A stretch of 26,775 nt of DNA from a bacterium (GTDB lineage: Bacteria; Zixibacteria; MSB-5A5; GN15; FEB-12). Positions 17,709 through 26,775 of the stretch are shown piece by piece; positions within the stretch are counted from its first letter, which is position 1; the number at the start of each line of letters is the position of its first letter. The stretch spans positions 1 through 26,775 of the forward strand of contig DAOWIM010000082.1 in assembly GCA_030640905.1 (NCBI GenBank). Direction: 5' to 3'. Position numbers and translations under genes: made by a program. The notes below the pieces were generated by a model, which was given only the letters and a program-made list of their open reading frames with translations, was not told where the DNA came from and did no database searches.

Positions 17709-18239
17709 CTAATTGTCCTGCAGAATAACCGTCTCGGCGATTGTAGCCGTATAGACCTTGTACGGTGAGATTTCTCCCTGTCCGCCCTTGATAAACAAAC
17801 CGGCAATAAACAGGTACGAAAGAATCTTCTTCCCCTTACCTTCGGCGGTAATCGTACCGGTAAGCTTGATCGGTCCGTTCTCGGCAGTGTGGAAATCGCC
17901 CTTGGGCGTCAACTCGCCGAATTCGAGTACTATCTTTCCCGGTTTACCGGCCTTTCGGGATTTGACCGATTCGGTAACGGTAGCCGTTCCCTCGGCTCCC
18001 TTTTCGATGATCGTCTTGCCACCAATCATGACGTCCTCATCGACATAAAACAGAAGCGGTACACCGGTTCCGAGAACACCCGATGAAATCTTGATGCTGG
18101 TCGGGAACTTGACCTTTATTTCCGTGCCTTCCGGCAATTGCACCTTGGCAGCCTGAGCAGTAGCAACAAAAGAGACAAGTGCTACTATCACTGCTAAGAG
18201 CACAAGTACGTATCGCCGATTAGTAATAAATCTGCTCAT
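17709..18239 (-). CDS. Small secreted protein with TrbI/VirB10-like beta pattern; last gene of the T6SS operon
   Basis: Signal peptide ending AQA; LPEGTEIKV...VDEDVMIGGKTIIEKGAEG.ATV...GKPGKIVL resembles the 'IPxGT...I.KG' VirB10-like family; starts 35 nt after the upstream stop. Confidence 0.55.
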   Translation of the reverse strand: MSRFITNRRYVLVLLAVIVALVSFVATAQAAKVQLPEGTEIKVKFPTSIKISSGVLGTGVPLLFYVDEDVMIGGKTIIEKGAEGTATVTESVKSRKAGKPGKIVLEFGELTPKGDFHTAENGPIKLTGTITAEGKGKKILSYLFIAGLFIKGGQGEISPYKVYTATIAETVILQDN

Positions 18240-18274
18240 TCCCTACTCCATTTCTCAATACGAGTCAGCGTTCC

Positions 18275-20482
18275 TTACTTCTTCAAAACTGGTAATCGTC
18301 CGGCCAGCTCCGGTTTGAAACTTATGGTAACCTGCTTGCCTACATTCTGGAAAGTTAAATTCCCCTCCATTTCGAACAAGCAATATTTTCCCTTCAAGAC
18401 GATTTTGTCACTGGGATTGGCGCCCCAGTTACAAGCCCGATCAATGGCGTCAAATGAGATGTGGATATCATCGTTCAGCTTCCACTCAAATGGATATTCA
18501 TCACCCTCAAATATCTGGTTCTGCTCAGCCCAGGTCGGGTTCTCACCGCGAGCGGTTACTTCAATATGCAGATGAGCATTATCCGGCACTGTTTCAATGC
18601 GGTAAGTGAACTTCTGCTTTTTGGCCCACTTCTTGGCGTCACGGATATACCGATCAACAGCTTTGATCGCAGCCCTATCGGTGAGATCTGACTTGATTTT
18701 CCGGAGCCGCTTGACGGCGCCATCAAGGCGGTAACTTGGATCGTTGTTGCCGTTAACTTCTTCTATAAGATCGTCAAGCTCCACCACCGCCCGCTTGGAT
18801 GCCTCTACCTTGGCCTTAGCTTCGGTTTTGACCTGCAACTTGGCTACCAGCGATTTTCCAAGCTTGCGCTCGGCATCGCTTAAGTCCGTGCCGTAGTTGT
18901 CACCATTAAATTTGACCTGCTCGACTACAGCCGTAGGAATTGTACTGTCACCGCGACTGGCAATAAACTGCGAAAACAATTCCCAGTAGCGTAGAACTCG
19001 CCCGCTTCGTGTAAAGAGCACAGAGGTCTCATCACCAGTGTGGAACTCACCGAGATCGGCCAGCATCTTCTCCAAGTCGGGCAACATCTCAAGCGAATCA
19101 GTCGCCGGATTGAGTTTTGGCCAATAGGCCGAGTCGCTGACCATCGCATTGAAACGAGTGATCGTCTTGTCCAGAACCTTAACCGATTCAGAGATGTCAA
19201 AATCCCGATAGAACTGTCGGACCTTACCGGAAGGAGCCTGGAACTCTTTGAAGAACCACTTCACACACCACGAGTTTTCGTAACGACTGTAAGCTGTCTG
19301 AATACGACGACGCTCATCGGCCCCGGTGCTAAACACCTGACCGGAGTTGGCCTTCAAGATTTCTCGCTCCACCAACTCCGCCTGAGGCAGAAGATAGTTG
19401 AGATGATAGATAAACGGCATCGAACAGAGCACCGCCCAGATGATACTGACAATCATGACAACCTTGGCAAGAGCTCGTATACGTGAAACACCTCGATTCC
19501 GACGCACTGCAGTGAGAATCCAGTAGAAGGGATCTTTCACACCGATCGGCCTGATCTTTGAAGGCGGCTTGTAGATCGAACGACCTACATCGGTACCAAC
19601 TTTTTCAGGCTCATCACCGGTATTGGAAACGAAGAATATCTGGAAGTTAAGCGTCCGGCCAACGATAACCTTTAGGAAATCAGCCAGCTTGATCAGAACG
19701 TTACGCACCGACCCAGCCCAGGCCTGATCGGCCGACACCGTTTTCCCGGCCAGCATTCTATTCAGGAACATATCGAAATCATCGCTGAGCAGATGCTCGT
19801 CTTCGGGACTAATCAGCATTACCTGATCATCCTTGGCAAAACCCGGTAACACATCAGCCTTGGTAACCACCAAACCAACCGGTATTGGCAAACGTTTGTG
19901 TCCGGGAGCGATCTGTTCAATCAAACTGACAAACGATGAAACGTGTGCCTGACTCTCAAGCTCCGATCCCATCACCTTCGGATCATAGAAAAACAACAAG
20001 CCATCGCACGAAGTCATGAAATCGATTATCTTGTCCTTGAGTTCGTCGCCGCCAGCCAACGCTATCGATTTGCCGGGGAAGTCATACGCCACCACCGGCA
20101 CCTTCGTCGAACCATCAAGGATCGCATTGAATATCAGGCACTGATCCTTCTCGGAAGGATCGGGGAATTTCCGTTCACCCCTCAGGTCCACCACGGTGCC
20201 GACTTCCGAAGTTGAACCCAGCCCCCAGATAGCCCTGCGGTTCATCAGGAACGAATTAGAAGTGGCATTATCTGTTACAGAAAGCTGCAGATTCTTCGAA
20301 ATCTTGCTCTCTTCGTTGAGGACCGTAAAATAAACCGTCTTGCCGCTATTCTGATGTCCATAGATGCCTATCTTGATACCCGCCGGCCATTCAAAAGCGC
20401 CACCACCACCGCTGCCTTTCGACTTGCTGGCTGCTTTCGAGCCGAACTTGAAAAGTTTCTTTATGACTTTAAGCGGTTTCAT
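18275..20482 (-). CDS. TssM/IcmF-like membrane protein: N-terminal P-loop NTPase, one TM, periplasmic helical plus beta domain (735 aa)
   Basis: GHQNSGKT, YDFPG, DGLLFFYD and PVGLVVTKADVLPGF (compare IcmF-type PVY...TKxDL..GF); TM VMIVSIIWAVLCSMPFIY; position two genes downstream of tssK. Confidence 0.65.
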   Translation of the reverse strand: MKPLKVIKKLFKFGSKAASKSKGSGGGGAFEWPAGIKIGIYGHQNSGKTVYFTVLNEESKISKNLQLSVTDNATSNSFLMNRRAIWGLGSTSEVGTVVDLRGERKFPDPSEKDQCLIFNAILDGSTKVPVVAYDFPGKSIALAGGDELKDKIIDFMTSCDGLLFFYDPKVMGSELESQAHVSSFVSLIEQIAPGHKRLPIPVGLVVTKADVLPGFAKDDQVMLISPEDEHLLSDDFDMFLNRMLAGKTVSADQAWAGSVRNVLIKLADFLKVIVGRTLNFQIFFVSNTGDEPEKVGTDVGRSIYKPPSKIRPIGVKDPFYWILTAVRRNRGVSRIRALAKVVMIVSIIWAVLCSMPFIYHLNYLLPQAELVEREILKANSGQVFSTGADERRRIQTAYSRYENSWCVKWFFKEFQAPSGKVRQFYRDFDISESVKVLDKTITRFNAMVSDSAYWPKLNPATDSLEMLPDLEKMLADLGEFHTGDETSVLFTRSGRVLRYWELFSQFIASRGDSTIPTAVVEQVKFNGDNYGTDLSDAERKLGKSLVAKLQVKTEAKAKVEASKRAVVELDDLIEEVNGNNDPSYRLDGAVKRLRKIKSDLTDRAAIKAVDRYIRDAKKWAKKQKFTYRIETVPDNAHLHIEVTARGENPTWAEQNQIFEGDEYPFEWKLNDDIHISFDAIDRACNWGANPSDKIVLKGKYCLFEMEGNLTFQNVGKQVTISFKPELAGRLPVLKK

Positions 20483-20516
20483 ATATCCTCAATTAAGAAC
20501 AGCATCCTGCTGCCGG

Positions 20517-25593: not shown

Positions 25594-25968
25594 CTAACCC
25601 ACTACGTAGTCAGCCGAAAAACTCTTCTCCTTCTCACCATCCTTGTAATGACCACTGACTTTCACCGCCATCCCGAGAGTGTGCGACCCGCTGTCGCTAA
25701 TACCAACAAACGAAACCGACACATTGTACAGACGCTTTTCGTGCAAGTCGATCGCATTTCGCAGACTGGCGCGAATGTCGGCTTTGTTCGCCGAGTACAA
25801 GTCGGAGAACTCCTTGTCCCAGATATCGCAACCGTAGGTCGGGCTGAAAGTCATCATCCCCGGTCGCGAACTAAGCAACAGACCAATTGAATAGGTAATT
25901 GACTCATGGAGATCAGCCGAGTCGAGATGTCCGTCCCGCAGGACAAAAGGAAGCGCCAGATGTTTCAT
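25594..25968 (-). CDS. tssE: GPW/gp25-family baseplate protein TssE
   Basis: LPF...ESI...IGLLLSSRPG...FSPTYGCDIWD..F...EKRL..V.V; AAGGA SD. Confidence 0.88.
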   Translation of the reverse strand: MKHLALPFVLRDGHLDSADLHESITYSIGLLLSSRPGMMTFSPTYGCDIWDKEFSDLYSANKADIRASLRNAIDLHEKRLYNVSVSFVGISDSGSHTLGMAVKVSGHYKDGEKEKSFSADYVVG

Positions 25969-25975
25969 CTATTCC

Positions 25976-26773
25976 TTAGTTTATCTTTACCAGTGAACCC
26001 TTGATATTAAGGATAGCGGCAGAGTCAACATCAACACCACCGGTGCCCTTTAGCGCCAGTTGCCCGGTCGCTTCAACTTTCGTGTTTGCCATCGACTTGA
26101 GCTCTATACCCTGGTCAGCCTCAAGTTTGATATTAGCGCCTTTCAGGCTGATATCACCCGTGGCTGTGATGCTGATGTCGCCCTTGCTTTCAATGCTGAT
26201 CGATGGTCCGCCCTTCTCCAGAACAATTGTATTCTCTCCCGTAGCGTTGATTATCTTAATCTCTTCACTGCCGCTGGTATCGGTAATCCGTATCTCGTTA
26301 CCACCCTTGGTCAGAAACACCTTGGTCTCATTCTTATTATCGGGAACAACCGGCGGTTTATCCGGACCACCATTGTAGAGTGACCCCAACGCAATTGGCA
26401 AGTCAGGGTTACCGGCAACAAACCCCACCAGAACCTCGTCGCCCACTTCCGGCATCGTCACAATTCCACGTTCAGATCCCGCGTGCGGCGATACATACCG
26501 TATCCACGAACTATCGATCCCCAACGCAGGAAGATTGACCTTGATCCGTGCGATCGCCTCGGGATCATCAAGGTCGACAACCGTGCCGGTCTGCAGTTTG
26601 GTCACCGAAGGTCGCGCAGTTTTCTTCGCAGGGAAAGCAACATCAAGAGGCGATGAGACAAACTTGTTGTGGTATTTGCCGCTGTCGTCAAAGACATGCT
26701 TGACCTCTGTGACCCAGAACAGTCCATCGAGTTTGGCCATCCCCTCCACTTTGACGCACTGGCCTACCTTGAC
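25976..26773 (-). CDS. vgrG: VgrG/gp5-type spike protein, C-terminal part (OB-fold + beta-helix); frame open past the right edge
   Basis: FWVTEVKHVF, ARIKVNLP, WIRYVSPHAG..RG...PEVGDEVLVGF..GNPD.PI.LGSLYNG, C-terminal KGSLVKIN. No stop upstream of 26749 (..VKVGQCVKV..), so the true start lies outside the window. Confidence 0.92.
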   Translation of the reverse strand, partial: VKVGQCVKVEGMAKLDGLFWVTEVKHVFDDSGKYHNKFVSSPLDVAFPAKKTARPSVTKLQTGTVVDLDDPEAIARIKVNLPALGIDSSWIRYVSPHAGSERGIVTMPEVGDEVLVGFVAGNPDLPIALGSLYNGGPDKPPVVPDNKNETKVFLTKGGNEIRITDTSGSEEIKIINATGENTIVLEKGGPSISIESKGDISITATGDISLKGANIKLEADQGIELKSMANTKVEATGQLALKGTGGVDVDSAAILNIKGSLVKIN

Positions 26774-26775
26774 AG

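Follow-up and report, generated by a model that had tools for sequence, protein, structure and literature searches.

A Zixibacteria type VI secretion system with a T6SS-iii-like core and a candidate undescribed envelope anchor

The T6SS locus of a Zixibacteria genome

The DNA analysed here (the window) is the whole of contig DAOWIM010000082.1 (C125; 26,775 bp) of a Zixibacteria metagenome-assembled genome (MAG, G000; 2.48 Mb in 346 contigs, 78% complete), and our subject is the operon of a type VI secretion system (T6SS) at one end of it. Read from the contig end inward, the minus strand carries eight close-packed open reading frames (ORFs) in the order vgrG (3′ part)-tssE-tssF-tssG-tssK-X-Y-Z, where X, Y and Z denote genes, and their products, without a Pfam or NCBIfam match at E ≤ 0.01. 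The initial annotation of the window had delineated the same eight genes; all are present, their family matches are consistent, and their order recurs in ∼25 independent loci (see below).

The five leading genes encode the VgrG spike and the baseplate proteins TssE, TssF, TssG and TssK, and each has a family match. Most of these Pfam and NCBIfam matches lie under the curated cut-offs, yet they are mutually consistent and fall in the expected order. The vgrG (tssI) gene (25976–26775) is truncated by the contig end, which also cuts the operon there. Its last 265 codons match PF04717 (5.6e-23) and TIGR01646 (8e-26), and their product is 57% identical to residues 306–569 of the 569-amino-acid (aa) VgrG of G001 (CP070756), a complete 3.27-Mb Zixibacteria relative. 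It is followed by tssE (25594–25968), which encodes a gp25-like baseplate wedge protein (PF04965, 3.9e-14; TIGR03357, 1.6e-10), and by tssF (23906–25573), whose PF05947 match (1.6e-4) is under the cut-off but whose placement between tssE and tssG is kept in all related loci. Next come tssG (22998–23909; PF06996, 4e-16 over aa 165–301) and tssK (21464–22915), encoding the baseplate-to-membrane adaptor (TIGR03353, 2.3e-13 over the N-terminal 206 aa). The remaining ORFs encode a 307-aa tail-anchored protein (X, 20517–21440), a 735-aa membrane GTPase (Y, 18275–20482) and, as read from its translation and hydropathy, a 176-aa secreted protein (Z, 17709–18239).

A second contig of the same MAG (C199; 4.5 kb) carries clpV as two ORFs, followed by tssB, tssC and hcp, and the two contigs are alike in G+C content (0.506 for C199, 0.517 for C125). 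C199 stops 74 nucleotides (nt) past hcp, C125 stops within vgrG, and the hcp-vgrG spacing in G001 is 86 nt; hence the two contigs almost certainly adjoin across a gap of ∼0.9 kb. The sheath, Hcp and ClpV genes, which the initial annotation had placed outside the window, are thus located. The locus most likely supplies the baseplate and membrane parts of a complete T6SS whose sheath, tube and unfoldase genes are on C199.

Relationship of the contractile core to T6SS-iii

T6SS-iii, the Bacteroidota form of the system, combines TssB–K, ClpV and VgrG with a TssNQOPR membrane complex (Bongiovanni et al. 2024, PMC10781749). The same 2024 survey found T6SS-iii only in Bacteroidota, with none in >20,000 complete genomes of other phyla, and in every case accompanied by some or all of the TssNQOPR set (PMC10781749). 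In the MAG, TssC matches PF17541 (DUF5458; 5e-69) and Hcp matches PF17642 (3.5e-19), both of them Bacteroidota-specific (T6SS-iii) models, and these types of TssC and Hcp are common to the two systems; TssB matches PF05591 (1.2e-6). The T6SS-i models PF05943 and PF05638 have no match anywhere in this genome. A tblastn search of 72,556 plasmids with TssC recovered Bacteroidota DUF5458 proteins at 25–30% identity, together with a few far weaker matches to eCIS-type (extracellular contractile injection system) or phage-type sheaths from Deinococcus and Streptomyces, and no proteobacterial TssC.

Direct comparison with reference clusters from annotated plasmids (four T6SS-iii and four T6SS-i) points the same way. 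By BLASTP, TssB, TssC, Hcp, TssE, TssF and TssK are nearer to the T6SS-iii than to the T6SS-i references, with 22–33% identity to the former. The bit scores of TssC are 199 with iii and 21 with i; TssE is 31% identical to a Hymenobacter T6SS-iii TssE (3e-11, versus 0.002 for the best T6SS-i TssE); and the corresponding values are 5e-9 and 0.11 for TssF and 5e-14 and 9e-6 for TssK. The sole exception in the core is TssG, which scores 33 bits (6e-5) against T6SS-i and 20 bits (0.8) against T6SS-iii. A PASTA-like segment (PF03793, 6.4e-6) occupies aa ∼20–74 of TssG (nt 23685–23888), near the N-terminus of this cytoplasmic baseplate protein.

Maximum-likelihood trees were built with four Bacteroidota iii references and with T6SS-i and eCIS references. 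In the TssC tree the Zixibacteria pair forms its own clade, a very long branch away from T6SS-i, within a trichotomy whose other members are the Bacteroidota clade and two eCIS sheaths, the order among the three not being resolved. In the TssK tree the Zixibacteria protein falls with iii (support 100/100 for the split from i), with the TssK of a divergent cluster (L007, described below) as sister. In both trees the Zixibacteria proteins thus stand apart from the four Bacteroidota references. The two trees and the BLASTP comparison agree: the core is iii-like and lies outside the sampled Bacteroidota. As judged from these sequences, the contractile core (TssB/C, Hcp, VgrG, TssE/F/G/K and ClpV) would be a deep lineage sister to the Bacteroidota T6SS-iii core. 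The initial annotation had recognised an iii-like rather than i-like core, a reading that the TssC and Hcp models, the BLASTP comparison of six proteins and the trees bear out for all but TssG. Its further suggestion, a possible evolutionary intermediate, finds no support: the trees give a separate deep lineage allied with iii and not a branch between i and iii. Unlike T6SS-iii in the 2024 survey, this iii-like system occurs outside Bacteroidota.

The unfoldase ClpV (TssH) precedes tssB as two ORFs. The first encodes the D1 half (Clp_N, AAA and lid; TIGR03345, 2e-105) and the second the D2 half (AAA_2 and D2-small; 2e-91), and the two genes overlap by 4 nt both in C199 (L003; 3–944 and 941–2038) and in G001 (L006; 10879–12339 and 9785–10882). 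In families f1, f5 and f10 of the phylum a split clpV likewise neighbours tssC, with D2 frames of 357–410 aa; in f2, f16 and f17 clpV is unsplit, at ∼815–855 aa. Splitting in several families distinguishes the Zixibacteria system from T6SS-iii, and, to our knowledge, a naturally split T6SS unfoldase seems unusual.

X, Y and Z beside the known membrane complexes

Hydropathy gives X one C-terminal transmembrane (TM) helix (aa ∼262–284; nt 20589–20657), and its AlphaFold2 model (predicted local distance difference test score, pLDDT, 82) consists of a cytoplasmic all-alpha repeat domain (aa 1–∼250) followed by that single helix. X has 240 homologues, and the named ones are almost all from Zixibacteria. 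Like TssL of T6SS-i, X is tail-anchored, but its fold is not DotU-like: Foldseek against PDB and AFDB clusters, VIA-align and profile comparisons gave no match to TssL/DotU, returning generic helical matches only, and hhalign against the TssN profile gave 0.1%. A TssL relationship, for which the initial annotation had proposed a Foldseek check, finds no support in these null fold and profile searches.

Y has a single TM helix by hydropathy (aa ∼339–361; nt 19400–19468) and carries the motifs G1 GHQNSGKT (the P-loop, nt 20336–20359), G3 DFPG and G4 TKAD (in TKADVLPGF, nt 19838–19888). Its AlphaFold2 model (pLDDT 84.5) begins with a basic N-terminal helix, followed by a TRAFAC-type G domain (aa ∼30–330) and the TM helix; beyond the membrane lie a helical periplasmic domain (aa ∼388–620) and a C-terminal beta-sandwich (aa ∼623–725). 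The initial annotation had described X with a C-terminal TM helix, Y as an NTPase with TM and periplasmic parts, and Z as secreted, in agreement with the hydropathy scan and the motifs of Y. For the G domain, Pfam and the AFDB clusters both give as best match DO-GTPase2 (PF19993; TRAFAC class), which corresponds to the Double-GTPases of GAP1 conflict systems, some of them membrane-associated (Kaur et al. 2020, PMC7159879). Annotations of the top AFDB clusters name ‘Double-GTPase’ proteins and not IcmF, and fold lists for the whole model are filled by GTPases. Among 33 members of the Y family searched against Pfam at E ≤ 1, DO-GTPase2 matched all 33 (best 3.8e-9), and IcmF-related_N (PF14331), the nucleoside triphosphatase (NTPase) domain of TssM, matched 15 (best 9.2e-5). 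The Y of the window scores 15.9 bits for DO-GTPase2 against a cut-off of 27, and 10.2 bits for PF14331 (E 0.42 genome-wide), whose curated cut-off is 25 bits; the sole genome-wide match to PF14331 in G001 is the Y orthologue (E 0.24). DO-GTPases have a paired second GTPase, a zinc ribbon and a GAP1 neighbour, none of which is found in the standard Y operon, and they sit in variable-effector conflict loci whereas Y sits in a secretion-system operon.

Y also recalls TssM of the Pseudomonadota T6SS-i. In layout (a cytoplasmic P-loop NTPase, a TM helix and, past TM3 of TssM, a helical and beta-rich periplasmic region) it resembles the C-terminal two thirds of TssM, with which it shares G-domain motifs; the PF14331 matches of the Y family are sub-threshold. 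Compared by hhalign with the N-terminal regions of five TssM proteins, the G domain of Y gave 84.5% (E 7e-6), with colinear blocks comprising the P-loop, DxxG, P-V-x-L-V-x-T-K-A-D-x-L-x-G-F and then FF/FT-S. The G domain of Y, and that domain only, is probably a remote homologue of the TssM NTPase domain, though this is unproven. The remainder of the two proteins differs. The T6SS-i TssM references are ∼1,130–1,310 aa long with three TM helices, as opposed to 735 aa and one TM helix in Y, which is without the N-terminal TM1-TM2 hairpin. The periplasmic domain of Y is unrelated to that of TssM in every test: its 360 aa gave 0.1–0.2% by hhalign against the TssM periplasmic region and no Pfam match, and a structure-atlas search with residues 380–735 returned TPR-like rows only, at TM-scores <0.4. 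Homology to TssM in this part is rejected on the null profile comparisons.

Z begins with a Sec signal peptide ending in AQA, without a lipobox cysteine, and is beta-rich. It gave 0.2% by hhalign against TssJ. An atlas search found its own cluster only, with TrbI as the nearest named cluster (0.79), a lead only. Where the related loci extend beyond Y, Z comes next in most of them.

Known anchor proteins were sought both in the operon and across the genomes. In T6SS-iii, a TssN gene between tssG and tssK is nearly ubiquitous, and TssN docks TssK. The Zixibacteria order is instead tssG-tssK-X-Y, and the TssN model PF17555 has no match in this MAG or in G001 and exceeds its cut-off in 0 of the 285 genomes sampled from the phylum. 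By BLASTP and hhalign, X, Y and Z resemble neither TssJ, TssL and the periplasmic part of TssM nor TssN/O/P/Q/R; the same searches of X, Y, Z and neighbouring envelope proteins against TssO/P/Q/R of Bacteroides, Tenacibaculum and Bernardetia (profiles of 2–4 sequences) found no similarity. The system thus has no TssN and nothing resembling TssO/P/Q/R, and it differs from T6SS-i in having no TssJ. The upstream genes, where the initial annotation had pointed for tssB, tssC, hcp, clpV and tssN-R, hold the first four, in a genome without TssN.

The TssM model TIGR03348 likewise has no match in this MAG or in the complete G001. Elsewhere in the phylum it detects canonical TssM (∼1,100 aa), over the cut-off in 19 of the 285 genomes (19–23 overall), which makes the TssM test valid there. 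The TssM-bearing genomes are mostly in families f7, f19 and f20, which are without the Y-type system. Since canonical TssM occurs in the same phylum, Y is a separate family and not the Zixibacteria form of TssM. TssM was also noted in genomes G114, G119, G180 and G202, and G180 apparently has both types.

Y and the iii-type TssC occur together. Y was found in 145 and the iii-type TssC in 144 of the 285 genomes, and by family the counts (Y/TssC) are f1 65/66, f2 14/14, f4 32/30, f5 21/20, f10 4/4, f16 5/5 and f17 3/4, with both zero elsewhere. The two genes are usually on one contig, 9–10 kb apart. The Y family is small, with 94 representatives among 1.84 billion clustered proteins, and named homologues of X and Y are overwhelmingly from Candidatus Zixiibacteriota MAGs. 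A search of 185,579 species genomes for distant Y-like proteins gave 30 loci, labelled Zixiibacteriota, GN15, Krumholzibacteriota, unclassified and ‘uncultured Ignavibacteriales’ (unverified labels). The order tssB-tssC-hcp-(vgrG)-tssE-F-G-K-X-Y-Z is kept in nearly all 30, and the segment tssK-X-Y-Z is common to Zixibacteria, GN15, Krumholzibacteriota and others. The colinear order recurs in ∼25 independent loci and is no chance arrangement; with the co-occurrence of Y and TssC, it makes X, Y and Z constant members of the operon. The host phyla belong, with Bacteroidota, to the Fibrobacterota–Chlorobiota–Bacteroidota (FCB) group.

Even two rearranged, divergent, high-G+C clusters of Krumholzibacteriia (L007 and L023) retain the trio of tssK, an X-like gene and a Y-like gene. 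The X-like protein encoded next to the Y-like gene in L007 matches X at 98.6% by hhalign, and the periplasmic part of the Y-like protein differs. In these clusters the Y-like GTPase is 841 aa long and is followed by a 964-aa GAP1-N2 protein (12570–15464 in L007). In conflict systems DO-GTPases usually have GAP1 as their partner, and this neighbour ties the T6SS GTPase family to such systems.

The candidate envelope anchor and its alternatives

X, Y and Z probably constitute the envelope anchor of this system, an undescribed one set on an iii-like core. That they form a membrane complex, that it contacts TssK and that GTP plays any role in it we infer from gene content, strict co-occurrence and colinearity, topology and predicted folds, and from the absence of TssN and TssM. 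The anchor parallels TssL-TssM in gene order and topology; any homology to them is confined to the G domain, and it is unrelated to TssNQOPR. Complex prediction for X with Y(1–400) gave 0.42 (best control 0.02), graded as weak support, with the TM helix of Y against the C-terminal helix of X at the interface. Of 80 solved complexes 58 attained this mark, as did 2 of 110 mismatched pairs; among these, scores ≤0.60 comprised just 7 of the 80 solved complexes and both mismatches.

X would be a tail-anchored inner-membrane protein whose helical cytoplasmic domain probably gives TssK and the baseplate a surface to dock on. Y is modelled as an inner-membrane GTPase, with its G domain in the cytoplasm and its single TM helix packing on that of X; its helical and beta-sandwich periplasmic part may extend towards the outer membrane. 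Hcp secretion in Agrobacterium is described as requiring the NTPase of TssM (PMC3346141). By analogy with the proposal for that NTPase, GTP binding or hydrolysis by Y could serve to gate or license the assembly or firing of the system. With a complete small-GTPase motif set in the anchor, nucleotide control of T6SS assembly can be put to a direct test.

Several points weigh against X, Y and Z as the anchor. The organisms are uncultured, and the system is known from its genes alone. The similarity of Y to the TssM NTPase is under every curated threshold, and the complex prediction for X and Y does not rise above its weak-support grade. The periplasmic part of Y matched nothing, and its reach and role are guesses. 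With so few sequences in the TssO/P/Q/R profiles, very remote homology is possible, and some TssO and TssQ proteins were recognised by Bongiovanni et al. through structure searches only (PMC10781749). No outer-membrane lipoprotein was found that would be the counterpart of TssJ or TssR, and Z has no lipobox; the anchor as described may therefore be incomplete.

X and Y could instead be true, extremely diverged orthologues of TssL and TssM, making this a shrunken i-type complex, the ‘hybrid’ of the initial annotation. The tssK-tssL-tssM group is conserved in T6SS-i (PMC10781749) and tssK-X-Y parallels it gene for gene, with matching topologies (X tail-anchored, Y running from NTPase through TM helix to periplasmic part). 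IcmF-related_N is also the second most frequent Pfam match of the Y family, the sole such match in G001 is the Y orthologue, and the hhalign alignment of the G domains has colinear motifs. Set against this, DO-GTPase2 matches the Y family more strongly and in every member, and the AFDB clusters are likewise Double-GTPase and not IcmF. Y lacks the N-terminal hairpin and ∼400 aa of TssM, its periplasmic 360 aa show no relationship, and no TssJ is present. The canonical TssM of other families means, moreover, that divergence of the phylum does not account for Y. We regard orthology as unlikely. What stands of the TssL/TssM-style complex proposed in the initial annotation is the pair of slots after tssK and the topology; the G-domain homology of Y is weakly supported, and homology finds no support for its periplasmic part or for X.

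A different possibility is that X-Y-Z is an accessory regulatory or positioning module, a membrane GTPase switch of the DO-GTPase conflict-system type governing the time or place of T6SS firing, and that other proteins provide the trans-envelope channel. Candidates are encoded, for example, by a five-gene envelope operon (10739–17622, plus strand; assigned by domain matches) convergent with the T6SS operon, which specifies a Ser/Thr kinase with PEGA, a CsgG-like protein, a tetratricopeptide repeat (TPR) plus CsgG-like protein, a predicted outer-membrane barrel and a leucine-rich repeat protein. It adjoins Z in G001 too; 9 of the 30 related loci have it whole and several more have it in part, and two of its genes are found within the L023 T6SS cluster, between tssG and tssK. 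The match of all 33 Y-family members to a family described from conflict systems (PMC7159879) would suit such a switch, as would the GAP1-N2 protein after the Y-like gene of L007, although neither the window nor the standard operon has a GAP1 gene. The barrel protein, however, also occurs in the T6SS-less families f9 and g27 and in f19 and f20, which have canonical TssM without the Y-type T6SS, and it is missing from the T6SS-positive families f16 and f17. Because of this distribution the envelope operon is not an obligate T6SS partner, whereas Y is, and we reject it as an obligate outer-membrane part of the system. TssK, furthermore, needs an inner-membrane dock, and the operon encodes no conserved membrane protein other than X and Y. 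An accessory role for X-Y-Z seems to us very unlikely.

Only two T6SS membrane complexes have been characterised, TssJLM and TssNQOPR, and the relation between them was left at three scenarios (Bongiovanni et al. 2024, PMC10781749). Literature searches turned up no publication on T6SS in Zixibacteria or Krumholzibacteriota, nor a relevant one on further subtypes. A K-L-M-like anchor with a faintly TssM-related G domain on an iii-like core would offer a concrete test of those scenarios. It is tempting to speculate that X-Y-Z is a third, separately built trans-envelope complex whose GTPase core shares ancestry with the TssM NTPase, that an NTPase anchor encoded after tssK is ancestral to the T6SS-i and the iii-like lineages alike, and that TssNQOPR of Bacteroidota is a later replacement. 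We think this history doubtful, but if true it would settle which of the three scenarios holds.

The iii-like T6SS extends beyond Bacteroidota, to about half of the sampled Zixibacteria and also to Krumholzibacteriota. Both phyla are common in sediments, and contact-dependent antagonism may matter for their ecology.

Elsewhere in the window, the minus strand (985–3641) holds a terminase large-subunit gene (PF03237, 1e-7) and, next to it, a 439-aa ORF without a family match; two PEP-CTERM protein genes flank the pair (308–4734).

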